Below are positions 2-21,153 of a stretch of DNA of 32,000 nucleotides, in pieces. The notes under the pieces were generated by a model. The model had not been told where the DNA came from. It did not search any database and worked only from the letters and a program-made list of their open reading frames with translations. The stretch spans positions 2,820,001 to 2,852,000 of the forward strand of contig NC_008312.1 in assembly GCF_000014265.1 (NCBI RefSeq). Direction: 5' to 3'. A program made the translations under genes and the position numbers. Positions within the stretch are counted from its first letter, which is position 1; every line of letters starts with the position of its first letter. Source of the stretch: Trichodesmium erythraeum IMS101 (lineage in GTDB: Bacteria > Cyanobacteriota > Cyanobacteriia > Cyanobacteriales > Microcoleaceae).

Positions 2-1120
2 GGTGTTTTGGTACCTGATAAACTAACTAGGGGTTTTTTGCAGTTAGATGACCTTTCCCTTCATTTAACTATTGATTCTCCGTTGCAACGATCAGTACGA
101 GCTATTTTACAAAAACAGTTAGAAAAGTATGACGCCAAGCGGGGTACTGTCATAGTGATGGATGCTACTGATGGTTCTATATTATCTTTGGTCTCGGAAC
201 CTTCTTATAATCCTAATAAATACTATAATTATGATGTGACGTTGTTCAAAAATTGGGCTGTAACGGATGTTTATGAACCTGGTTCTACTTTTAAACCAAT
301 AAATGTGGCTTTGGCTTTGGAGGTAGGAGCAATTGAAGAAGATAGTGTATTTTATGATACAGGAAGGATCAGGTTTGATCGTTGGTCTATATTTAATTCT
401 GGTGGTGGCGGCGGCGCCCGAACTGTGACTCAAATTATTCAACATTCTAGTAATATCGGTATGGTTAAAATTGTTGAAGAAATGCCGCGCGCTGTTTTTT
501 ATGATGGTCTCAAACGTTTGGAACTAGATAGTATTACTGGTACGGATTTACCTTTTGAGGCTGCTAATATTTTGAAGGGTAGAAACCAGTTTTTAATGGT
601 GCCGGTGGAAGCAGCGACTACTGCTTTCGGTCAGGGGTTCTCTCTGACTCCTTTGAAGCTAGCACAGTTACATGCGGCTTTGGCAAATGGGGGAAAGTTG
701 GTGACGCCTCATGTTGTTCGTGGATTATTTGATAGTAAGAAGCAACCATATTGGCAGTTGCCAATGCGGGAACCTAAACAGGTTTTTTCTGTTGATACGA
801 CGAGAAAAGTTTTGGCAATGATGGAAAAGGTGGTTGAGAGTGGTACTGGTAAAAGGGCTAGACTACGTGGATATCGCATTGCTGGCAAAACTGGTACGGC
901 GCAAAAGGCTTCTGATACTGGAGGTTATTCTGATGATGCTCGAATTACTAGTTTTGTGGGTATTTTGCCAATGGAGTCTCCTCGTTATGTGGTTTTGGCT
1001 GTTATTGATGAGCCTATTAAGGGTACTGGGGGAAAGGTTGCTGCTCCTGTTGTTAAGTCGGTGATTAAGTCTTTGATTAATATTGAGCAAATTCCTCCTT
1101 CTTCTATTAGGTCTAAGTGA
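2..1120 (+). CDS. Class B penicillin-binding protein (FtsI/PBP2-type peptidoglycan transpeptidase), C-terminal part; the 5' end lies outside the window
   Basis: Frame is open from the window edge. Transpeptidase motifs occur in canonical order: SxxK (STFK), SxN (SSN), KTG (KTGTA). Confidence 0.85.
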   Translation, partial: GVLVPDKLTRGFLQLDDLSLHLTIDSPLQRSVRAILQKQLEKYDAKRGTVIVMDATDGSILSLVSEPSYNPNKYYNYDVTLFKNWAVTDVYEPGSTFKPINVALALEVGAIEEDSVFYDTGRIRFDRWSIFNSGGGGGARTVTQIIQHSSNIGMVKIVEEMPRAVFYDGLKRLELDSITGTDLPFEAANILKGRNQFLMVPVEAATTAFGQGFSLTPLKLAQLHAALANGGKLVTPHVVRGLFDSKKQPYWQLPMREPKQVFSVDTTRKVLAMMEKVVESGTGKRARLRGYRIAGKTGTAQKASDTGGYSDDARITSFVGILPMESPRYVVLAVIDEPIKGTGGKVAAPVVKSVIKSLINIEQIPPSSIRSK

Positions 1121-1553
1121 GGTTAAGGGTTGAATGTTAAGGTTTTTTAAAGGCTGTAGTAAAACTGCTATGTATTGAGTTATTATGATTACATTGATAT
1201 AAGTAATTCAAAAAACGAACCTAGGAATAGGAAAAAAATCAGTTGTTATTGCTAGCTTTTCTATGGCTTTTAGAATGTCTGCTTAATATGCTCAAGCAGC
1301 TGTTCTAAGTTTTGATTTTAATAGCGGATCAAGTAATTCATCTGGAGGTGACTTGGTTTTTAGGGAAACTAATGGATTTCAAGTGACTTTTTCAGATGAT
1401 CACTCAAATGGATATTCTGGGGGTAATGCTGACTGAGTACATGTTACAAATAGAGGTTATGGCAATGTTAAAGTTGGTCATCCAACGCTGACCTCAACTA
1501 TTTTGGGGGTTAATTTTTTTTGGTTTCATTGCTGTGAGTTGGGGCGGTAATTT

Positions 1554-1579
1554 GTTTGGTTTCGTTCTTCAACCCCAAC
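1554..1579. repeat. Short hairpin repeat of the TTGGGTTTCGTTCCTCAACCCAAC type, copy 1
   Basis: GTTTGGTTTCGTTCTTCAACCCCAAC, immediately 3' of the NACHT gene stop. The arms GTTTGGTT and AACCCCAAC can pair. Confidence 0.5.
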
Positions 1580-1587
1580 AACTTTTA

Positions 1588-4500
1588 CTAACTAAAGGTT
1601 ATTCCTCCTCCTCCTTCTATCTTGTCAATAAAGACTTGATTTTTAACGTCTCCACCAGCGGCATTACCTTGTTGTACTGTTATTGCGTTGCGAATATTCT
1701 CTTGTGCTTCTAGTTGTATTTTTTCCTTTCCCTCTGCGGGTAAACCTTTGCCTCCACGCAATAATGCTACGGGAAAATCTTCTGTTTGGGAAAAGTCGAA
1801 TATGGGGGTTTGTTCTCCCCCTTGTTGTTGAGCGCTTTGGGGAACGGTTTTTCCTACATGGTGCATTAGGTTGGAAAGGGTGACATATTTGTCTCCTGGT
1901 TTGTTGTCTCCACCTTGTAATGCTTCGAGAAGGTGGTATGTGTAGATGCTCATTGTTTGATCTGAGCGGATCCATGATAACTGGTATCCTGTGGATGAGG
2001 TGAATACTGCCCGTCCTGTTCCTTTTTTTAGGTCTTCTATTAGGTTTTTGGGGAGGGCGGTTTGACTGAAGTTTTCGGGTAAGTCTAGTTGGTCTGTTTC
2101 TTTGGCGGTTGCCATTCCTTGGGCGTGACAACTATCTATAATTACTAATAGTTTTTGGGCGGATATTTCCTGGAGGGCGTTGTTAAAGTCTGTTGCTGGT
2201 AATGCTGTTTTTTGTGTTTTTTGTAGTTTTATGGGGCTGGTGTCGTGGGGGATTAAATAATATTTTTCGGTTGATTTATCTAGCCAACCATGACCGGAAT
2301 AATAGACTAATATTGTTGCTTCTGGGTCGTTTTTTGCTTGTTCTTGGAGCCAGTTTATGTTGTTTAAAATGTTTTGTTTTGTTGCTTGTTCGTTGCATAG
2401 TAGGCGGAGATGATTTTCGTCGTCTATGTAACTGCAGAGGTCGGGGTTTGTGAGGAATGATTTGATTGCTTGAACGTCTTTGACTGTGACGGGGAGTGAC
2501 CAGTCGGGGTATTTGTAGTCGCCGACTCCTATTAGTAGGGCGTAGTTGTGAGAAAGTGATTTAGACATGGGTATTTTGGGGGTTGGTTTGTAGTATTGGA
2601 GCCGTTGTTGGATGGTTTGAATAATTTTGATAATTTTATATAAATCTTGTTTTACAAAACTATCATTTTGTAGTTTTTTTGTCAACTTAATAATTGTGTT
2701 TTCTGAACCTATTTTACCCAGAGCTTCTGCTACATGGTCGCGCACCCAATAGTCTGAGTCTTTTAGGAGTGGAATTAATTGTTCAATTGCTTTTTCCGAA
2801 CCTATTTCACCCAGAACATATGCTGCTCTCGAACGCACAAAAGAGTCTGAGTCTTTGAGGAGTGGAATTAATCCCTCAATTGCTTTTTCCGAACCTATTT
2901 CACCCAGAGCATATGCTGCATTGCGACGCACATTAGGGTCTGAGTCTTTGAGGAGTGGAATTAATTGCTCAATTGCTTTTTCCGAACCTATTTTACCCAG
3001 AGCTTCTGCTGCAGTATAACGCACATTAGGGTCTGAGTCTTTGAGGAGTGGAATTAATTGCTCAATTGCTTTTTCCGAACCTATTTTACCCAGAGCTTCT
3101 GCTGCAGTATAACGCACATTAGGGTCTGAGTATTTTAGGAGTGGAATTAATTGCTCAATTACTGTTTCCGAACCTATTTCACCCAGAGCTTCTGCTGCAT
3201 TGCGACGCACATTAGGGTCTGAGTCTTTGAGGAGTGGAATTAATTGCTCAATTGCTTTTTCCGAACCTATTTTACCCAGAGCTTCTGCTGCAGTATAACG
3301 CACAAATTCGTCTGAGTCTTTTAGGAGTGGAATTAATCCCTCAATTGCTTTTTCCGAACCTATTTTACCCAGAGCTTCTGCTGCAGAAAAATTCACAGAA
3401 GAGTTTGAGTCTTTTAGGAGTGGAATTAATTGCTCAATTGCTTTTTCCGAACCTATTTCACCCAGAACATATACTGCACTATAACGCACAAATTCGTCTG
3501 AGTCTTTTAGGAGTGGAATTAATCCCTCAATTGCTTTTTCCGAACCTATTTTACCCAGAACATATACTGCTCTCGAACGCACAGAAGAGTCTGAGTCTTT
3601 GAGGAGTGGAATTAATTGCTCAATTGCTTTTTCCGAACCTATTTTACCCAGAGCCTCTGCTGCAGCATAACGCACATATTCATCTGAGTCTTTTAGGAGT
3701 GGAATTAATTGCTCAATTGCTTTTTCCGAACCTATTTGACTCAGAGCAGATCGTGCAGAAAAATTCACATTAGGGTCTGAGTCTTTTAGGAGTGGAATTA
3801 ATCCCTCAATTGCTTTTTCCGAATCTATTTTACCCAGAGCCTCTGCTGCAGCATAACGCACAAAAGAGTCTGAGTCTTTGAGGAGTGGAATTAATCCCTC
3901 AATTGCTTTTTGCGAACCTATTTTACCCATGGCATTTGCTGCACTCCAACACACAAAAGAGTCTGAGTCTTTGAGGAGTGGAATTAATCCCTCAATTGCA
4001 GTTTCCGAACCTATTTCACCCAGAGCATATGCTGCACTCCAACGCACATATTCATCTGAGTCTTTTAGGAGCGGAATTAATTCCTCAATTGCTTTTTCCG
4101 AAGCTATTTTACCCAGAGCATGTGCTGCACTCCCACGCATATACTTGTCTGAGTGTTCTAGAAATTGAACCAACCTCGGAACAGTAACCTCCGACATCGT
4201 TAACCCAGCCAACACAACCTTCGCCAACCCAGGCAACTCCAACCCATCAACCTCAGCAAACGCCGCTTCCTGAAACTTCTCTTTTACCTCACCCACCAAC
4301 CTCGCCCCCAAAAACCAATCTACCTCCAACGCCAGCCTTACCACCCGCACCGCTAACACCTCATCCTCAACCAACCCCAACATCAACGCCACCACTTCCG
4401 TCCACTTCAAATAATTCAAATAATCCCACTGCAACTCATAGTCACTCAAACCAGACAACTGCGACGACAACCTTTCCGCCGCATAATACTCCTGCAACAA

Positions 4501-5619
4501 CTGATGGCGAAACGAAATCTGACCATCATCTCCCACCTGGATCAAATGATACTCCAACAGATCCTCCAACCAACCCATGGCACAGTCAGTCGGAGCCACC
4601 ACCTGCCCTCGCAAAAAGTCCGCCAATACATCTTCAGCCTTTTTCCGAGGAATAGCAACCATCATCTCAGTTTTCGACCCCCCAGTTGTCATCACCCACG
4701 CCAACTCCTGCAATAACCGATCCCACCAACGCCGAGAACTTTCATCAACCAGAACATCCTGCTTAATACGACCACTATAAGTCTGAGTAAAACCACGAAA
4801 TACCAACCCCAGATGAGCAGGTATGACCTTGTTATAGTCAAACACCGAACACAACATCAACAAAAACATCGGAGTTTCCCCCAACTCCCGCAACCTCCCC
4901 TGTAACTGTCCCCACAAATTTTCACCCTGTTCCGGCAAATAAGCACAGACAAAATCCTGCATTTGAGATTCTGTCAGGGGCTGCATTTCCAGCTTTTTCT
5001 CAATCCGCAAGTCTCCCCCCAGACTCAAATCTCGGGTCGAAAACACCATAGCAGTTTCTGGGTAGTCTTGCCGGAACATTCTCACCTGTTGTCGCGCCTC
5101 CTCCGACGCCATCTCATTAAACCCATCAAATAGCAGCAAAAATTTACCTTGAAGCAGCAAACTTTTCAGAGTCTCTTCATCTATATATGTATTGTGGTTG
5201 TGCTTATCAATAAAAGCTTGAATTCTCGAAAGTACAGAAGATTTACTGTAGCGCAATTCTATGAGAATAGGAATTTGGCCATTTTCCCCAGACCAGACCT
5301 TATGTGCCTCCTCCAACAACAACCTGGCCAAAGCAGTAGATTTTCCCGACCCCGGTCTTCCCACCAATAAAACATGATTAGCCGCATATTTCCGTAAACC
5401 CTCCAAAACCGTCAACCGTTCAATTTTCTCTTGTGGGTCTTTCCCCTGCTTTTCCTCCGACTTAACCCTTTGTACCATCAAACCCAAATCGAAAGAAGGA
5501 AAAATATTTTGCCCTTGCTCATGGGGCTTTTTTCCCGCCACATCCGTCAGAGTATAAACCTCCCACCAACGGTCATACTCTCGGCAAACTGATTCTAGAT
5601 AGGGCCCCCAATTGATCAT
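1588..5619 (-). CDS. Multidomain STAND protein: NACHT NTPase + 16 HEAT repeats + caspase-fold peptidase C14 (orthocaspase) + G/N/Q-rich tail (1343 aa)
   Basis: Uninterrupted 4 kb ORF. NACHT motifs: Walker A GRPGSGKST (aa 87-95), Walker B LLLFDGFNE (D165), STR sensor, ETPMFLLMLC, winged-helix FRHQLLQEYYAA. The 31-aa unit AIExLIPLLKDSDxxVRxxAAxALGxIGSEK occurs 16 times. Caspase dyad: YYSGHG (H1110) and DSCHAQG (C1164). Confidence 0.9.
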   Translation of the reverse strand: MINWGPYLESVCREYDRWWEVYTLTDVAGKKPHEQGQNIFPSFDLGLMVQRVKSEEKQGKDPQEKIERLTVLEGLRKYAANHVLLVGRPGSGKSTALARLLLEEAHKVWSGENGQIPILIELRYSKSSVLSRIQAFIDKHNHNTYIDEETLKSLLLQGKFLLLFDGFNEMASEEARQQVRMFRQDYPETAMVFSTRDLSLGGDLRIEKKLEMQPLTESQMQDFVCAYLPEQGENLWGQLQGRLRELGETPMFLLMLCSVFDYNKVIPAHLGLVFRGFTQTYSGRIKQDVLVDESSRRWWDRLLQELAWVMTTGGSKTEMMVAIPRKKAEDVLADFLRGQVVAPTDCAMGWLEDLLEYHLIQVGDDGQISFRHQLLQEYYAAERLSSQLSGLSDYELQWDYLNYLKWTEVVALMLGLVEDEVLAVRVVRLALEVDWFLGARLVGEVKEKFQEAAFAEVDGLELPGLAKVVLAGLTMSEVTVPRLVQFLEHSDKYMRGSAAHALGKIASEKAIEELIPLLKDSDEYVRWSAAYALGEIGSETAIEGLIPLLKDSDSFVCWSAANAMGKIGSQKAIEGLIPLLKDSDSFVRYAAAEALGKIDSEKAIEGLIPLLKDSDPNVNFSARSALSQIGSEKAIEQLIPLLKDSDEYVRYAAAEALGKIGSEKAIEQLIPLLKDSDSSVRSRAVYVLGKIGSEKAIEGLIPLLKDSDEFVRYSAVYVLGEIGSEKAIEQLIPLLKDSNSSVNFSAAEALGKIGSEKAIEGLIPLLKDSDEFVRYTAAEALGKIGSEKAIEQLIPLLKDSDPNVRRNAAEALGEIGSETVIEQLIPLLKYSDPNVRYTAAEALGKIGSEKAIEQLIPLLKDSDPNVRYTAAEALGKIGSEKAIEQLIPLLKDSDPNVRRNAAYALGEIGSEKAIEGLIPLLKDSDSFVRSRAAYVLGEIGSEKAIEQLIPLLKDSDYWVRDHVAEALGKIGSENTIIKLTKKLQNDSFVKQDLYKIIKIIQTIQQRLQYYKPTPKIPMSKSLSHNYALLIGVGDYKYPDWSLPVTVKDVQAIKSFLTNPDLCSYIDDENHLRLLCNEQATKQNILNNINWLQEQAKNDPEATILVYYSGHGWLDKSTEKYYLIPHDTSPIKLQKTQKTALPATDFNNALQEISAQKLLVIIDSCHAQGMATAKETDQLDLPENFSQTALPKNLIEDLKKGTGRAVFTSSTGYQLSWIRSDQTMSIYTYHLLEALQGGDNKPGDKYVTLSNLMHHVGKTVPQSAQQQGGEQTPIFDFSQTEDFPVALLRGGKGLPAEGKEKIQLEAQENIRNAITVQQGNAAGGDVKNQVFIDKIEGGGGITFS
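1750..2568 (-). other. Caspase-fold peptidase C14 domain (about aa 1018-1290)
   Basis: Begins HNYALLIGVGDYKY. The catalytic His codon is at nt 2290-2292 (YYSGHG) and the catalytic Cys codon at nt 2128-2130 (DSCHAQG). A p10-like segment FTSSTGYQLSW..YTYHLLEALQGG follows. Confidence 0.85.
2698..4182 (-). repeat. In-frame tandem array of 16 x 93 bp encoding PBS-lyase/HEAT-like repeats (aa 480-974)
   Basis: Strict 93-nt periodicity. Nt 2941-3033 and 3034-3126 are identical base for base. The array creates spurious repeat-derived ORFs on the opposite strand (3234-3602, 3878-4168, 3978-4187). Confidence 0.9.
4465..5382 (-). other. NACHT/STAND NTPase module (about aa 80-385) of the 1343-aa protein
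   Basis: Walker A lies at nt 5335-5361. The Walker B Asp codon (D165) is at nt 5125-5127. The winged-helix-like FRHQLLQEYYAA follows. Domain boundaries are approximate. Confidence 0.8.
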
Positions 5620-5620
5620 A

Positions 5621-5655
5621 TTTAGAATTTAGAAGTTAAAAGTTAGAAGTTTAGA
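5621..5655. repeat. Heptameric STRR-like tract (TTTAGAA TTTAGAA GTTAAAA GTTAGAA GTTTAGA)
   Basis: 7-nt periodicity read directly. It lies in the divergent spacer between the NACHT gene and bioD. Confidence 0.7.
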
Positions 5656-5712
5656 CCTTAATTTTAACCTTTCATCCAGACTACTGCCGGAGTTAACCAA
5701 AATCCAATAATA

Positions 5713-6447
5713 TTGAATAATTATCAATCAAATCTTCCGATAAACACCTTGAAAGAACTTTTAATTACTGGAACTGATACTGACGCAGGCAAAACAATAT
5801 TGACCATCGCTCTTGCTGCTTACTGGCAAACTTACTACAAAAACCAGAAGTTAGCCCTGTTTAAACCTATTCAAACTGGTATTGGCGATCGCGAACTCTA
5901 CACCCAACTATTTTCCCTCGAACAATCTCTTGACGAAATCAACCCTTTATGGTATAAGACACCAGTTGCACCACCCGTAGCATCAGAAAAAGAAGGTCGT
6001 CTAATACAATTAGACAAAATATGGTCAACTTTTACAACCTTGCGAGAGCAAAAAGATTTTGTATTAGTTGAAGGTTTAGGAGGGCTGGGTTCCCCTGTAA
6101 CTAAGGAACTCACCGTAGCAGATATAGCTAGAGATTGGGATTTACCCACTATTTTAGTAGTACCAATTAAGTTAGGAGCGATCGCTCAAACTGTAGCAAA
6201 CGTTGCCCTAGCCCGTCAGATGAAAGTTAACCTCCGAGGCATTATCCTCAACTGTATCAAACCCTGCTCAGAACAAGAAATAGCTGACTGGACTCCAGTT
6301 GACTTAATTGAATCCTTAACTCAAATGCAAGTTTGCGGTATTATACCACACTTAAAAGACATTACCGACTTAGATAAATTAGCAAAAGCAGCTTCTAACC
6401 TAGACTTAGAGAAATTTCTGCCAGTAGTGTCAAAAGTTAAAAGTTAA
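5713..6447 (+). CDS. bioD: Dethiobiotin synthetase
   Basis: P-loop ITGTDTDAGKT is typical of BioD, followed by VEGLGGLGSP. The 5713 start is a TTG from the longest ORF. An in-frame TTG at 5749 (giving MKELLITGTDT) would give a more typical N-terminus. Confidence 0.8.
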   Translation: MNNYQSNLPINTLKELLITGTDTDAGKTILTIALAAYWQTYYKNQKLALFKPIQTGIGDRELYTQLFSLEQSLDEINPLWYKTPVAPPVASEKEGRLIQLDKIWSTFTTLREQKDFVLVEGLGGLGSPVTKELTVADIARDWDLPTILVVPIKLGAIAQTVANVALARQMKVNLRGIILNCIKPCSEQEIADWTPVDLIESLTQMQVCGIIPHLKDITDLDKLAKAASNLDLEKFLPVVSKVKS

Positions 6448-6493
6448 AAGTCAAAAGCCAGAAACTAAAAGTTAAAAGTTAAAAGTTAAATTT
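6431..6493. repeat. Heptameric STRR-like tract, 9 units of (T/C)AAAAGT type
   Basis: CAAAAGT TAAAAGT TAAAAGT CAAAAGC CAGAAAC TAAAAGT TAAAAGT TAAAAGT TAAATTT. It overlaps the last codons and the stop of bioD. Confidence 0.8.
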
Positions 6494-6574
6494 TTAATTA
6501 CTAAGAACTGACCCACAACCACCATATCTATTAGGGACATTAGGAATTTGGCCTCTCAAACCCTCAAAAGAAAG

Positions 6575-6609
6575 AAGTTAGAATTTAGAAATCAGGAGTT
6601 AAATTCTTA
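6575..6609. repeat. Heptameric STRR-like tract upstream of the M20 gene
   Basis: AAGTTAG AATTTAG AAATCAG GAGTTAA ATTCTTA. Confidence 0.55.
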
Positions 6610-6621
6610 ATTATCAAAAAC

Positions 6622-7839
6622 ATGGTCTCAACTATTCCCAACTCAAATTCCCTTATCGAGTCTCAACTGCGCCCAGAGATTAGAAAAATGCAACCTCTAT
6701 TAGTTGAGTGGCGACGACATTTGCATCAAAGACCAGAATTAGGTTTCAAAGAACACTTAACAGCAAAATTTATTGCTCAAAAATTACAAGAGTGGGGCAT
6801 CGAACATCAAACAGGAATTGCTAACACAGGAATAGTTGCAACTATTAACAGCAATAAACCAGGACGGGTACTAGCTATTAGAGCCGACCTAGACGCACTA
6901 CCAATACAAGAATTAAACGACGTCCCATATAGATCCATACATAATGGTGTAATGCACGCCTGTGGCCATGATGGACATACAGCGATCGCCCTGGGTACTG
7001 CCCACTATCTCGCTACTCATCCTGAAAATTTTAGTGGCATAGTAAAAATAATCTTCCAACCTGCCGAAGAAGGACCAGGAGGATCCAAACCAATGATCGA
7101 AGCAGGAGTACTAAAAAACCCTGATGTAGATGCCATAATTGGTTTGCACCTATGGAATAATCTCCCCCTAGGCACATTAGGAGTCCGCAGTGGTGCTCTT
7201 ATGGCAGCCAGCGAAAGATTTAATTGCACAATTTTAGGGAAAGGTGGCCATGGAGCCATGCCACATCAAACAATAGATTCTATTGTAGTAGCAGCACAAG
7301 TTATTAATGCATTACAAACAATAGTATCTCGGAATATTAGTCCTATAGACTCAGCAGTTGTAACTATAGGTCAGTTGAACGCAGGTAGAGCATTTAATGT
7401 TATAGCTAATACTGCTAGAATGGCTGGTACAGTGCGCTATTTTAATTTAGATTATCAAAATTATTTTAGTAAACAAATGGAGCAAATAATTTCTGGAATT
7501 TGCGCAAGCTATGGAGCTAATTATGAGTTGAATTATCAACCACTTTATCCCCCATTAATTAACAACCCAAAAGTTACAGATATAGTTAGAAGTGTTGCGG
7601 AATTAATAGTAGAAACTCCTGCCGGTGTCATACCAGAATGTCAAACCATGGGAGCAGAAGATATGTCATTTTTCTTACAAGAAGTACCCGGTTGTTATTT
7701 CTTTTTAGGCTCTGCAAATTCTGAAAAAGGTTTAGCTTATCCTCACCATCATCCTAGATTTGACTTTGATGAAACAGCTTTAGGAATAGGAGTAGAAATG
7801 TTTATCCGTTGTACAGAAAAGTTTAGTATTCAGGAATAA
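6622..7839 (+). CDS. Peptidase M20D family amidohydrolase (N-acyl-amino-acid / hippurate hydrolase-like)
   Basis: 405 aa with an ATG start. Metal-binding motif MHACGHDGH, plus PAEEGPGG and a dimerisation-domain-sized insert. Confidence 0.8.
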   Translation: MVSTIPNSNSLIESQLRPEIRKMQPLLVEWRRHLHQRPELGFKEHLTAKFIAQKLQEWGIEHQTGIANTGIVATINSNKPGRVLAIRADLDALPIQELNDVPYRSIHNGVMHACGHDGHTAIALGTAHYLATHPENFSGIVKIIFQPAEEGPGGSKPMIEAGVLKNPDVDAIIGLHLWNNLPLGTLGVRSGALMAASERFNCTILGKGGHGAMPHQTIDSIVVAAQVINALQTIVSRNISPIDSAVVTIGQLNAGRAFNVIANTARMAGTVRYFNLDYQNYFSKQMEQIISGICASYGANYELNYQPLYPPLINNPKVTDIVRSVAELIVETPAGVIPECQTMGAEDMSFFLQEVPGCYFFLGSANSEKGLAYPHHHPRFDFDETALGIGVEMFIRCTEKFSIQE

Positions 7840-10240: not shown

Positions 10241-10828
10241 ATGGTAAATAAAATTTCTGCTGAAGAATTTTTTGATAGTTGGTCTGTCAAGTATGATGAT
10301 CTGTTCAAAGATCCTAAGTATTATGTGCGTTACCTCAATGAAGCAGCTAAAATATTCCATCAATATAATTACTATCAAGGTAGTATTTTGGATATTGGTT
10401 GTGGTACAGGTTTTCTGAGTGAATTATTACAGGGAAATTTTGAATATACAGGAATTGATATTTCTAGTAAAATCCTAGATTATGCAGCTAAAAGAGGATA
10501 CAAAACTATCCACAAATCCATTGAAACAGCTTTGTCTGAAATTGATACTCAATCCTACGATTTTGTTTTTTGTCTGGGAGCATTATTATTTGTTGAAGAT
10601 GCTCAAAAAGCTATAGAGCATATTTATCGAATTGCTCGTAAAGCTATTTTAATAAGTCTTGATGAGACAACCGAGGAATATATCAAAAATTTGGCTGTGC
10701 CAGTTTATGACCATTCAAAAATTACAATTAAAAATGCCATTGAAGATTATTTGATTATAGGTTGGACTTCTCCAACTACGGGAATTCCTATCCGAACTCG
10801 CATGATTTATATTCAGCAAAAAAACTAA
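10241..10828 (+). CDS. Class I SAM-dependent methyltransferase, tandem copy 1
   Basis: Motif I ILDIGCGTGFLS. 195 aa. Paralog of the next gene, offset by 679 nt. Confidence 0.75.
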   Translation: MVNKISAEEFFDSWSVKYDDLFKDPKYYVRYLNEAAKIFHQYNYYQGSILDIGCGTGFLSELLQGNFEYTGIDISSKILDYAAKRGYKTIHKSIETALSEIDTQSYDFVFCLGALLFVEDAQKAIEHIYRIARKAILISLDETTEEYIKNLAVPVYDHSKITIKNAIEDYLIIGWTSPTTGIPIRTRMIYIQQKN

Positions 10829-10919: not shown

Positions 10920-11507
10920 ATGGTAAATAAAATTTCTGCTGAAGAATTTTATGATGATTTTGCTCCTAACTATGATGATGTATTAAAAGACCCCAAGTGT
11001 AATGCACAGCACGTCTATGAGGCAGCTAAAATATTTCATCAATATAATTACCATCAAGGTAGTATTTTAGATATAGGTTGTGGAACAGGCTTTCTAAGTG
11101 AATTATTAGAGGGAAATTTTGAATATACAGGTATTGATGTTTCGGCTAATATGCTGGAATATTCAGCTAAAAGAGGTTATCAAACTATCCATAAACCAAT
11201 AGAAACGGCTTTACCTAAAATTGATACTCAATCCTACGATTTTGTTTTTTGTCTGGGAGCATTATTATTTGTTGAAGATGCTCAAAAAGCTATAGAGCAT
11301 ATTTATCGAATTGCTCGTAAAGCTATTTTAATAAGTCTTGATGAGACAACCGAGGAATATATCAAAAATTTTGCTGTGCTAGTTTATGACCATTCAAAAA
11401 TTACAATTAAAAATGCCATTGAAGATTATTTGATTATAGGTTGGACTTCTACAACTACAGGTATTTCTATCCGAACTCGTATGATTTATATTGAACAAAA
11501 AAATTAA
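10920..11507 (+). CDS. Class I SAM-dependent methyltransferase, tandem copy 2
   Basis: Same length and motifs as copy 1. The 3' half is nearly identical at nucleotide level. Confidence 0.75.
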   Translation: MVNKISAEEFYDDFAPNYDDVLKDPKCNAQHVYEAAKIFHQYNYHQGSILDIGCGTGFLSELLEGNFEYTGIDVSANMLEYSAKRGYQTIHKPIETALPKIDTQSYDFVFCLGALLFVEDAQKAIEHIYRIARKAILISLDETTEEYIKNFAVLVYDHSKITIKNAIEDYLIIGWTSTTTGISIRTRMIYIEQKN

Positions 11508-15147: not shown

Positions 15148-16260
15148 TAGCAATCCTAAGTAGGTTGCGGCAAAATTTCATACTGAAAAAGTTTTGGGAA
15201 ATTGAATATTTGACCATCCGCAAAAAACTTAAATAGCCACTTAACTACTTTAAAAGAACTGCAAAGATGATAAAAAGTAATACTGAAATTTTTGGTTTGT
15301 AACCAAATATCTTCAACAGGATTTTGCTCCGGAGCATTGGGAGCAAATCTTGTACAATTTATCAACAATTCTTCTTCTGATAAGTATTGATTAATTGTCA
15401 TTAAATATTCTCGAAATTCTTGAGAGTTATGGTAAGTTGCCCCATCCCAAAATATTGCCAATTTGTTGCCCGGTCTTTGCTTCTGCAAATATTTAATAAA
15501 TTCAATAGTATTTTTAGTATTTCCACTCTCATATTCTTGCACAAGAAATTCCTTGGTTTTATAGTCTAAAGCTCCATAATAAGTCTGTCTTTCTTTTTCA
15601 TTTTTAATTGCAATTTCTATTCTTTCATCTGTTTTTCCCCAAGCATAACCTAATATGTCTCCCCATAGAAGATGACATTCATCAATCATAAACACTGTAA
15701 GCTTTCCAGTTTCTATTTCTGGTTGCCATTTAGCTAAAAATTCCTGTATTTCTTTTCTTTTAACTTCTACTAATTAATCATTTTTAGCAGGATTCTTTTT
15801 TTGAGTTTTTTTCCAACTTATGCCCGCTTCTTTAAACAAGTTATAGTAACTTTGATTAGACTCAAAAACCACATCATATTGCTCCTGTAAGTAGTTTTTT
15901 AAATCTGATAACCTAAGATAATCTTGTGCTCTCAACCACTCAATTGTTTTCTCTTTTTCGACCGTTTTTAAGTAACCTTGTCTCCCTTGATACTGAAGCC
16001 TTAAACTTTCTACACCATGAAATAATGCTTGGTTTTTCCATTCACTAATAAAACTGTGAGAAACATTTAATAATTCTTTGACTTCATGGTAGGATTTTCC
16101 TGACAAGGTCATTTTTACGGCCAAGGCCCTTTTAATTTCTTTAGACTCTTTTGTTTGATTAATAAAATCATTTAGTTTATCTATAATATTCATTTTTTGT
16201 CTTTTTCTTAGATCTGTTATTCTTACTATTATATCTGTTGCGACCAATATGGGATTGCTA
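15148..16260 (-). mobile_element. IS630-family insertion sequence (1113 bp) with terminal inverted repeats and flanking TA
   Basis: Left end is TAGCAATCCTAAGTAGGTTGCGGCA. The reverse complement of the right end is TAGCAATCCCATATTGGTCGCAACA. The outer 9 bp are identical and the repeat is imperfect further in. TA dinucleotides sit at 15146-15147 and 16261-16262. Confidence 0.8.
15156..16247 (-). pseudogene. IS630-family DDE transposase interrupted by a single in-frame TAA (15774-15776)
   Basis: The HTH part (15774-16247) and the DDE part (IDECH .. FWDGATYHNS .. NPVEDIW) are in the same frame, since 15774-15156 = 618 = 3 x 206. The junction reads NPAKND*LVEVKRKEIQEFLAKWQPEIETGKLTVFMIDECH. Confidence 0.8.
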
Positions 16261-20103: not shown

Positions 20104-21153
20104 CTACAATAAATCCTTAAACTTAGGATGATTAGCCAAACTCTTCAAAACCTTCTTAATATCCTGCGATCGCTCCTTTTTAACAATCAAAGTCACATTC
20201 CCATCCCTAACAACAACCACATCCTCCAAACCAATAGTTACAATAGTATCATCATCATCGGTAGCAAAAAAAATCGACCTCTTCGTATCCAACCCCAAAT
20301 GATTAGCCAACTCCACATTCACACTATCCCCCTTAACCAAACGTTCCAAACCATTCCAGTCACCCAAATCATCCCAACCAAAAGCCACAGGTAACACAAA
20401 AGCCTTATCAGTCTTCTCCATCACTGCATAGTCAATACTCTTTTTCTCCAACTGAGAATAACCCCCAGGACCCATCGTCTCCAAAACAGTCATCATTGTT
20501 GGCACATATTTTCGCAACTCCGCCAACATCACCCCCACCCTGAAAACAAAAATACCGCCATTCCAACTAAAACGCCCCGTTGCTAAAAACTCCTCCGCCT
20601 TCTCTCGGTTAGGCTTTTCTGTAAACCGTGCCACCTGATAAACGTCAAACCCGCCAAAATTTCCTGCTTTTTTTCCCTGTTCAATATACCCATAACCAGT
20701 AGAAGGAAAAGAAGGTTTCACACCTAGGGTGACAATAGCCTCCTGGTTAGTGGCCAATTCTGCTGCTGCCTCCAGAGTCTTATGGAATATTTCTGGCTCA
20801 CCGATCCAATGGTCAGCTGGAAAAAATCCAACAACTATATCTTCCCCATAACGATGTGCCGCTTCTATTGTTGTCCAAGCAACAGCAGGAGCAGTATCCC
20901 TTCCTTCCGGTTCTGCCAATATATTTTCCTGTGGTATTTGGGGTAACTGTTGTGCCACACCTGCGGCCAACATTGCCGAAGTCACAACCCATAAACCACC
21001 CCAATCATTAGATAATGGGAGTAGTCTCTGTGCTGTGGTTTGTAACAAACTTTTACCACTACCGTCAAGAGAAAGAAACTGTTTAGGCCGATGCTTACGA
21101 CTCAGGGGCCAAAAACGTTCTCCTTTTCCACCAGCAAGAATAACAGGTATCAT
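20104..21153 (-). CDS. Mannose-1-phosphate guanylyltransferase (nucleotidyltransferase domain only)
   Basis: N-terminus MIPVILAGGKGERFWPLSR, then EPEGRDTAPAV and GYGYIE. 349 aa. Confidence 0.8.
   Translation of the reverse strand: MIPVILAGGKGERFWPLSRKHRPKQFLSLDGSGKSLLQTTAQRLLPLSNDWGGLWVVTSAMLAAGVAQQLPQIPQENILAEPEGRDTAPAVAWTTIEAAHRYGEDIVVGFFPADHWIGEPEIFHKTLEAAAELATNQEAIVTLGVKPSFPSTGYGYIEQGKKAGNFGGFDVYQVARFTEKPNREKAEEFLATGRFSWNGGIFVFRVGVMLAELRKYVPTMMTVLETMGPGGYSQLEKKSIDYAVMEKTDKAFVLPVAFGWDDLGDWNGLERLVKGDSVNVELANHLGLDTKRSIFFATDDDDTIVTIGLEDVVVVRDGNVTLIVKKERSQDIKKVLKSLANHPKFKDLL

Follow-up and report, generated by a model that had tools for sequence, protein, structure and literature searches.

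Here we describe Tery_1841, a protein of the cyanobacterium Trichodesmium erythraeum IMS101 that joins, from N- to C-terminus, a NACHT module, sixteen HEAT-like repeats, a short junction, a caspase-fold (C14) domain and a tail in one chain. On balance, we favor the view that it is an NLR-like, single-polypeptide conflict or immunity sensor of the NACHT clade of STAND NTPases, with an orthocaspase as its C-terminal effector. The gene lies in a stretch of 32,000 nucleotides (contig NC_008312.1, positions 2,820,001 to 2,852,000; hereafter the window), where an open reading frame (ORF) beginning with ATG occupies 1588..5619 on the minus strand and encodes 1343 residues followed by a stop codon. 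The product is identical to ABG51097.1 / WP_011611472.1 / Q114H7, and exact matches to IMS101 proteins were obtained for three more proteins of the window. A first-pass annotation, made from the sequence of the window, had proposed a 1343-residue ORF with a NACHT module, HEAT array, C14 domain and tail, and profile searches and predicted structures bear this out.

The gene, its domain order and its general class are already known. A T. erythraeum metacaspase with an "EZ-HEAT(15)" plus C14 architecture was listed by Jiang et al. in 2010 (PMC2853523), the order NACHT, HEAT_PBS, metacaspase was described for Tery_1841 by Asplund-Samuelsson et al. in 2012 (PMC3501461), and a 2020 review (PMC7475262) singled it out as the one orthocaspase with the p20 domain C-terminal to its accessory domains and tied its NACHT domain to programmed cell death. 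The first-pass annotation was therefore mistaken in taking this exact order to be uncharacterized. These surveys regarded the architecture as peculiar to T. erythraeum and did not place it in a family. What appears to be new here is the picture at the level of the family: a conserved junction motif, the swapping of effectors behind it, and the paired terminal motifs of relatives.

The NACHT module

The first 70 residues of Tery_1841 (5410..5619, minus strand, as for every part of the gene below), delimited by alignment and by an AlphaFold2 (AF2) model, contain a conserved aromatic helix motif (Y7, L8, Y15, W18, Y22, T23, D26) followed by a low-confidence loop, and are a pre-NTPase extension typical of the NACHT-HEAT family. 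The NACHT nucleotide-binding domain follows at aa 83-230 (4930..5373), where Pfam NACHT (PF05729) scores 40.7 bits against a cut-off of 26.7. NB-ARC reaches 23.0 bits, lower than NACHT and below its own cut-off of 23.5, and the N-terminus matches NLRC4 directly in sequence (E 3e-11).

The residues expected of a working NTPase switch are conserved throughout the 41 N-terminal homologs that were aligned. In Walker A (GRPGSGKST, aa 87-95; 5335..5361), G87, P89, G90, G92, K93, S94 and T95 are invariant; in Walker B (LLLFDGFNE, aa 161-169, with D165-G166-F167-N168-E169; 5113..5139), D165, G166, N168 and E169; and in the STR sensor (aa 194-196), T195 and R196. Compared with the NACHT Walker B signature D[GAS]hDE (Kibby et al., bioRxiv 10.1101/2022.07.19.500537), the DGFNE of this protein has the small residue and the second acid, and an invariant Asn in place of the first acid. 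Helical domain 1, the winged helix and helical domain 2 make up aa 231-477 (4189..4929), as judged from alignment, AF2 and Foldseek. The winged-helix stretch FRHQLLQEYYAA (aa 370-381; nt 4477-4512) holds H372, which lies in FRHQ, is invariant in the same 41 sequences, and is the conserved winged-helix His and putative equivalent of NLRC4 H443. K93, D165, STR, FRHQLLQEYYAA and the protease residues H1110 and C1164 had all been picked out by the first-pass annotation, and each was found at its residue.

The AF2 model of aa 1-480 has a mean predicted local distance difference test score (pLDDT) of 83.5 and a predicted TM-score (pTM) of 0.84, and its best PDB matches in Foldseek are NLRC4 (4kxf, E 2.7e-12), NOD2 (5irm) and NLRP3, with TM about 0.6. 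The N-terminus is thus predicted to have the nucleotide-binding domain, helical domain 1, winged-helix domain, helical domain 2 fold of NACHT clade STAND NTPases.

The HEAT array and its variation

Sixteen 31-residue HEAT-like repeats of the PBS-lyase/alphaRep type, the number counted at first pass, occupy aa 478-973 (2701..4188), as delimited by Pfam, by the tandem-repeat DNA and by the sequence itself. Pfam HEAT families score above cut-off from about aa 480 to 990 (HEAT_2, E 3e-147), and the DNA forms a 93-bp tandem array of 15.5 copies (2692-4129, 86% matches). The nearest structural relatives of the units are generic alphaRep scaffolds, and the phycocyanobilin lyase structure 5n3u is also matched with a strong score.

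The array is presumed to be the ligand sensor. Across the 15 regular repeats, entropy peaks at positions 15, 16, 19, 20 and 23, while the scaffold positions are nearly identical. The ratio of nonsynonymous to synonymous differences (pN/pS) within the repeats is about 1.7 at variable positions versus about 1.0 at framework positions, a contrast obtained by a crude pairwise count and confounded by gene conversion among repeats. In a second T. erythraeum assembly, GBRTRLIN201, the counterpart of Tery_1841 is equal in length, and the fusion is therefore no assembly artifact. Comparison of the two proteins gave 32 residue differences, all of them in HEAT repeats 7-10 (aa 678-772; window 3304-3588, minus strand), with the NACHT and protease parts identical, although these differences could partly stem from assembly of the tandem array in a metagenome-assembled genome (MAG). 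The pattern in repeats 7-10 resembles an exchange of whole repeat cassettes, and could reflect either real repeat shuffling or an effect of MAG assembly. Variation limited to the repeats would be expected if a surface that binds ligands were being diversified by selection and its repeats shuffled.

The junction, the protease domain and the tail

Between the repeats and the protease lies a segment of 44 residues (aa 974-1017; 2569..2700, from the family alignment). It had been described as a 43-residue linker; there is indeed a separate segment here, and it contains a degenerate capping repeat as well as a junction motif conserved across the family, IQQRLQYY (aa 1003-1010; nt 2590-2613). The caspase-fold domain (C14, orthocaspase/metacaspase-like) follows at aa 1018-1292 (1744..2568), as defined by Pfam, alignment and AF2. 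Pfam Peptidase_C14 (PF00656) covers aa 1025-1282 at 83.3 bits against a cut-off of 21.4 and spans profile positions 2-232 of 233, so that the NACHT, HEAT and C14 regions all score above curated Pfam cut-offs. The catalytic H1110 (YYSGHG; nt 2290-2292) and C1164 (DSCHAQG; nt 2128-2130) are invariant, as is G1111, in the 42 protease homologs aligned. The loop that follows the catalytic Cys is disordered and includes an invariant K1173, a candidate site of self-processing. An AF2 model of aa 1000-1343 (pLDDT 76.6, pTM 0.78) finds MALT1, Candida and yeast metacaspases, AtMC9, caspase-11 and CED-3 as its top Foldseek matches (E 2.7e-9 to about 3e-7), and the C-terminal domain is predicted on this basis to have a caspase fold. 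When alignment A2 was used as a profile to search PDB sequences, the HEAT columns of some rows dominated the outcome, which was uninformative on the protease.

The first-pass description of this domain as a caspase holds for the fold and the His/Cys dyad. The motif around the Cys is the DSCH of metacaspases and orthocaspases, without the QACRG of caspases; the P1 preference is therefore uncertain and "orthocaspase" is the more accurate name. Metacaspases and orthocaspases cut after Arg or Lys, caspases after Asp. In Tery_1841, D1162 stands two residues before the catalytic Cys and D1048 is invariant; by comparison with metacaspase structures, the two residues suggest a preference for a basic P1. 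Against this, cleavage after Asp has been reported for the related KrAvs12 protease (PMC12642450).

M1018 (window 2566-2568), with which the protease domain opens, lines up with the start Met of free-standing caspase homologs. Every fused form retains it, and a Met also stands at the effector boundary in several TIR and phosphoesterase variants of the family. M1018 could be a fusion scar or an internal start. Since it coincides with the start of free-standing homologs, an origin by gene fusion is indicated and an internal start is conceivable.

The tail (aa 1293-1343; 1591..1743, from alignment and AF2) is about 51 residues long rather than the 55 first given. Its first half contains a predicted helix (about aa 1298-1319) that is conserved in homologs, and it ends in a Gly/Asn/Val/Ile-rich terminal motif, GGDVKNQVFIDKIEGGGGITFS. 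When the caspase-fused tails were compared (L007, L014, L019, L043, L071, P0275, P0276, P0279 and Tery_1841), all were seen to consist of the conserved helix and then a Gly/Asn/Val/Ile-rich end, for example SDVGNIISITAERIDVGGISS; that of Tery_1841 is a divergent version of the family terminal motif. Ten C-terminal tails were compared with Pfam, accepting hits up to an E of 1, and nothing credible emerged. Neither a second copy of the motif near Tery_1841 or eight other caspase-fused loci nor a partner ORF downstream of the fused genes was found.

A cyanobacterial NACHT-HEAT family with exchangeable effectors

When species-representative genomes were scanned with the N-terminal module, 80 loci were recovered, all of them cyanobacterial and none from Trichodesmium. 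By this measure Tery_1841 belongs to a large and so far cyanobacteria-only NACHT-HEAT family. An uninterrupted NACHT-HEAT-C14 ORF is present in 9 of the 80 loci. Eight of these ORFs are complete (1103-1839 aa): three are from Okeania and one each from Symploca, Calothrix, Pelatocladus, Brunnivagina and a Nostocaceae MAG; the ninth, a second copy in Okeania KiyG1, ends at a contig edge. An exhaustive search of the representative library added at least three more clusters with the full architecture (P0275, P0276 and P0279, of 1324, 1387 and 1181 aa). With NACHT-HEAT-C14 ORFs in other genera, the architecture is therefore not unique to Trichodesmium.

Word-indexed homolog searches returned only separate NACHT-HEAT proteins (up to about 830 aa) and caspases (about 320-570 aa), with no protein holding both NACHT and C14. 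The idea that the fusion might be unique or an artifact was rejected in view of sequence gaps, insertion sequences (IS) and the intact fused ORFs found elsewhere. The apparently split ortholog of Trichodesmium MAG_R01 is due to a scaffold gap of 100 N inside the repeat array, an IS carrying a DDE_Tnp_1 transposase breaks the ortholog of Calothrix NIES-4101, frameshifts or stops interrupt the orthologs of Okeania hirsuta and L008, and the L003 and L013 relatives are also split.

The position of the effector is of particular interest. The repeat array is closed by the junction motif (consensus IQxRCKFYNYEI, pattern I[QE]....[YF][YN]) in 51 of 62 complete family ORFs, and family sequences diverge after it. 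Among 52 family tails searched with Pfam, C14 was found in eight, TIR in eight, Metallophos (a calcineurin-like phosphoesterase) in five and CHAT in one. The first-pass annotation was right that the protease of Tery_1841 lies C-terminal to the repeats and saw in this an inversion of the usual order; judged from these sequences, C-terminal placement is the rule in the NACHT-HEAT family rather than an oddity of one member, and the effectors are interchangeable. C-terminal effectors have already been noted on bacterial NACHT proteins by Kibby et al., who proposed that the solenoid returns such an effector to its usual position (bioRxiv 10.1101/2022.07.19.500537). Among the free-standing proteins most closely related to the protease (55-65% identity, about 330 aa) are some that bear EAD10 or TCAD2, which are adaptor domains of the conflict systems of Kaur et al. 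2020 (PMC7159879).

Several relatives with short tails show a further arrangement. The stretch of about 25 residues with which they end (for example QNFYAPVDTVVGNVEGNLI) is found again right at the N-terminus encoded by the gene that follows, as seen at L030:10518-12229, L035:10600-11668, L039:11250-12541, L051:10050-11342 and L064:10280-11514. In L030 the product of this downstream gene is a CHAT protease (Pfam E 1e-10); in L035, L039, L051 and L064 the products are small helical proteins without a Pfam match. The helical domains of these paired downstream genes are fused directly to the NLR in L055/L074/L081, L045/L073/L079 and L022/L044/L065. In Calothrix sp. NIES-4071 (L004:6001-8404), a NACHT-only relative of 530 aa is followed directly by the gene for a 255-aa Trypsin_2 protease.

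The locus and the rest of the window

As the first-pass annotation had it, Tery_1841 is flanked by a convergent transpeptidase (penicillin-binding protein, PBP) gene at 8-1120 and a divergent bioD-type gene at 5713-6447. Beyond bioD come an M20 peptidase gene, an SH3 protein gene, PRK, two methyltransferase genes and more housekeeping genes. On its upstream side Tery_1841 faces the divergent bioD, with no small EACC1 gene immediately 5'. A comparison of the nine fused loci gave no neighbor gene conserved across genera, conservation being seen only within genera (the Okeania loci, for instance, have glucokinase and Mur ligase neighbors in common), and no small conserved neighbor was found in these nine or in six broken loci. 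The proposal of a one-gene system is in line with this lack of a partner conserved across genera, and the system may plausibly be "self-contained".

In Calothrix sp. NIES-4101 (L001:5192-14106) the ortholog sits between bioD and an M20 peptidase gene, and in Trichodesmium (window 1588-7839) Tery_1841 lies just outside the bioD-M20 pair, in the opposite orientation; these neighbors are absent from every other fused locus. The coincidence could mark an insertion hot spot in common or a remnant of synteny. Toxin-antitoxin pairs adjoin some relatives. In Trichodesmium sp. MAG_R01 (L006:12472-18088), the genes of a type I restriction-modification system (HsdM, HsdS and HsdR, with an Abi_C gene before HsdR) come after the ortholog, on the side where IMS101 has the PBP gene, and this flank is therefore variable between strains. 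Consensus scanning of 1000-6000 gave 7 promoter-like sites versus 8.2 expected, which is uninformative, and no terminator-like site on the gene's own strand at its 3' end.

Elsewhere in the window, adjacent genes for 195-aa class I S-adenosylmethionine (SAM)-methyltransferases on the plus strand (10241-10828 and 10920-11507) have near-identical Pfam profiles, a tandem duplication. A transposase on the minus strand at 15156-16247 is divided between two ORFs, a helix-turn-helix part (157 aa) and a DDE_3 part (179 aa), and is probably a frameshifted IS630-type element. At 20104-21153 (minus strand), G+C is locally raised (0.44) with a strong negative GC skew, a composition like that of window 4001-5000 in the NACHT-module part; this region encodes an ordinary nucleotidyl transferase (mannose-1-phosphate guanylyltransferase-like), which has no connection with Tery_1841.

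Proposed mechanism and alternatives

Much of the nitrogen fixed in the oceans comes from Trichodesmium blooms. Programmed cell death of the metacaspase type has for years been associated with the abrupt collapse of these blooms, and we know of no sensor or trigger identified for it. In the orthocaspase surveys cited here, Tery_1841 is the only Trichodesmium orthocaspase reported with a NACHT (NLR-type) module. It could therefore serve as a concrete handle on whether a specific viral or host ligand starts protease-dependent death in this organism, and its value beyond the known architecture lies in the family-level picture and in this experimental entry point to Trichodesmium cell death.

Sequence and structure comparisons show the anatomy, conservation, fold similarity, effector modularity and repeat-restricted variation described above; each functional step below is a proposal. 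Bacterial NACHT proteins defend against phage, and they become hyperactive when their winged-helix His is mutated (Kibby et al., bioRxiv 10.1101/2022.07.19.500537). We infer the functional steps from NLRC4/NOD2-type NACHT biology, from this hyperactivation and from the precedent of KrAvs12, discussed below. The variable surface of the HEAT array would bind a foreign protein, from a cyanophage or other invader, or else a guarded host protein. By analogy with NLRC4/NOD2-type modules, the resting NACHT would be closed with ADP and held by the winged-helix H372, and ligand binding would allow nucleotide exchange at K93/D165 and then oligomerization. Oligomerization could gather the C-terminal proteases and activate them by proximity or dimerization, as in caspases, metacaspases, MALT1 and the Avs12 caspase. 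The active protease may then cut cellular proteins, or one latent effector encoded elsewhere, and proteolysis would stop or kill the infected or stressed cell within the trichome. Tery_1841 would do this without a dedicated adjacent partner, as one effector variant of a modular NACHT-HEAT family. A "sensor, switch, protease" reading is a natural one since the same NACHT-HEAT chassis bears TIR, metallophosphoesterase or CHAT in relatives, and effector swapping behind one junction motif is typical of conflict systems.

Several points weigh against this reading. The surroundings of Tery_1841 in IMS101 (PBP, bioD, M20 peptidase, PRK) are housekeeping genes with no recognizable defense island; the named antiphage NACHT/Avs models in PADLOC or NCBIfam gave no match above threshold; and published biochemistry or genetics of the protein was not found in the literature searched. 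The characterized bacterial caspase-type defense proteases use a dedicated, co-encoded substrate (EACC1, a hydrolase or gasdermin; PMC12642450), and no dedicated substrate gene is encoded beside Tery_1841 or the other fused orthologs examined. To these must be added the confounding by gene conversion and by MAG assembly given above for the two measures of repeat variation.

The same machine could answer a physiological trigger, such as iron or phosphorus starvation, oxidative stress or the state of a host protein, and thus be a stress or nutrient switch for cell death or remodeling that adds to bloom collapse. We take Tery_1841 to be the orthocaspase called TeMC7, an identity that could not be confirmed from the literature. 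T. erythraeum has 12 orthocaspase genes, and the transcripts of seven, including TeMC7, go up at culture collapse (PMC5756287); with the housekeeping neighborhood, the bioD/M20 genes adjoining in both Trichodesmium and Calothrix NIES-4101, and the assignment of the NACHT domain to programmed cell death in review (PMC7475262), this keeps a physiological trigger in consideration. The transcript rise is correlative, however, neighbor genes are conserved within genera only, and swapping of TIR and phosphoesterase effectors together with strain diversification in the repeats only are hallmarks of an arms race, not of fixed metabolic sensing, so that we think such a trigger unlikely, if worth keeping in mind. 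It is doubtful, too, that Tery_1841 depends on other proteins for its effect, with the protease cleaving a latent effector elsewhere (a pore-former, a nuclease zymogen or another orthocaspase) or the tail recruiting tail-bearing proteins, a proposal that is compatible with the sensor role favored here. It draws on the dedicated substrates of characterized STAND/caspase defense modules (PMC12642450), the roughly 25-residue C-terminal motif that recurs on the next gene in five loci (L030, L035, L039, L051 and L064), the Gly/Asn/Val/Ile-rich terminal motif kept by every caspase-fused member, the EAD10/TCAD2 adaptors on free-standing protease homologs, and the NLR-linked amyloid motifs documented in filamentous cyanobacteria (bioRxiv 10.1101/2020.01.06.895854). 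It is opposed by the lack of a tail-motif copy or candidate substrate gene near Tery_1841 or the eight other fused orthologs, and by a tail that has no Pfam match and is, in Tery_1841, a divergent version of the motif. More specifically, we would entertain only tentatively, and with little expectation, that the Gly/Asn/Val/Ile-rich tail GGDVKNQVFIDKIEGGGGITFS is a homotypic, possibly amyloid-like signaling motif, comparable to the one that short-tailed relatives have in common with the N-terminus of the effector encoded downstream. Should this be so, the family would be a C-terminal mirror image of NLR-amyloid signaling, a caspase, TIR or phosphoesterase effector being attached to the chassis in cis and other effectors joining it in trans via the motif; activated Tery_1841 could seed or recruit tail-bearing proteins such as free-standing orthocaspases, and an NLR sensor would be linked to the multi-metacaspase death program of Trichodesmium.

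Two further explanations seem very improbable to us. The protein could have a housekeeping role at the phycobilisome, unconnected with death, HEAT_PBS binding phycobiliproteins in the manner of the CpcE/F lyases or NblB while the protease trims the antenna under ATP control. The scores of the array against the CpcE and NblB models (NCBIfam) are indeed strong, and 5n3u is among its structural relatives, but every score against a phycobiliprotein HEAT model falls short of its cut-off (CpcE 271 vs 330 bits, CpcF 133 vs 220, CpeY 142 vs 600, NblB 241 vs 300), those for CpcE and NblB are the sum of 16 generic repeats, and the best structural relatives are generic alphaRep scaffolds. TIR or phosphoesterase effectors on the same chassis would make no sense for antenna maintenance, and there are no phycobilisome genes near Tery_1841. 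It is equally hard to credit that the protein is a decaying, non-functional relic of a fusion, perhaps not made as one chain. Long genes with repeats are often broken, many relatives are split (by the IS in Calothrix NIES-4101, and in Okeania hirsuta, L008, L003 and L013), and the conserved M1018 at the domain boundary makes an internal start conceivable; yet the ORF is intact in two independent T. erythraeum assemblies and identical in them outside the repeats, the split in MAG_R01 comes from a scaffold gap of 100 N, the catalytic motifs are all invariant, and intact orthologs occur in at least six genera.

Comparison with known systems

A close parallel is with bNACHT proteins, whose repertoire includes HEAT sensors and peptidase effectors, among them a caspase (Kibby et al., bioRxiv 10.1101/2022.07.19.500537). 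Tery_1841 resembles them in having a NACHT with a winged-helix His and a repeat "antigen receptor" sensor; it differs in its Walker B, which is DGFNE, and in that none of the tested bNACHT shares its architecture. The NCBIfam antiphage NACHT models HyoA, EruA and DS8 give 17-23 bits against cut-offs of 790-1200. With PADLOC, hits were driven by the repeats (HEAT-ARM_XIII etc.), apart from a generic "caspase" (E 5e-20) and marginal mad8 and STAND_TPR. Membership in the Avs families or in the named antiphage NACHT equivalogs was rejected, all falling below cut-off.

In KrAvs12, a STAND-caspase fusion, a phage protein triggers and the protease kills (Evans et al. 2025 preprint, PMC12642450). As in Tery_1841, a STAND NTPase is covalently joined to a caspase-like protease, whose catalytic Cys is required for killing by Avs12. 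However, the Avs12 protease is N-terminal and needs an adjacent EACC1 substrate gene, whereas that of Tery_1841 is C-terminal. The two-gene EACC1-caspase system (PMC7159879) is similar in that the Tery_1841 protease is related to the EACC1-associated caspase model (NCBIfam NF047832, "caspase, EACC1-associated type"), at 102.8 bits against a cut-off of 140. With this score below the cut-off and no EACC1-like neighbor, assignment to that system was rejected.

The paired motifs of relatives recall BASS, the NLR-associated amyloid motifs that occur in filamentous cyanobacteria (Dyrka et al., bioRxiv 10.1101/2020.01.06.895854). In both, a short motif on the NLR is paired with a copy on an adjacent effector gene. 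The polarity is mirrored, however: in published BASS pairs the NLR bears the motif N-terminally and the Bell-domain effector bears it C-terminally, whereas in the Tery_1841 relatives the NLR ends with the motif and the effector begins with it.

Finally, the NACHT fold of Tery_1841 is nearest to NLRC4, NOD2 and NLRP3, which invites comparison with the animal NLRC4/NAIP inflammasome. The logic of a repeat sensor, oligomerization of an NTPase and a caspase-fold protease activated by proximity would, by analogy, be that of the inflammasome and of the Apaf-1 apoptosome. Animals recruit the caspase via CARD or PYD adaptors and sense with LRR or WD40 repeats, whereas Tery_1841 carries its protease, of the metacaspase-type DSCH, in cis and has HEAT repeats as its sensor. 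With sensor, switch and caspase-fold protease on one polypeptide, Tery_1841 may thus provide a compact natural comparison for both inflammasomes and apoptosomes.

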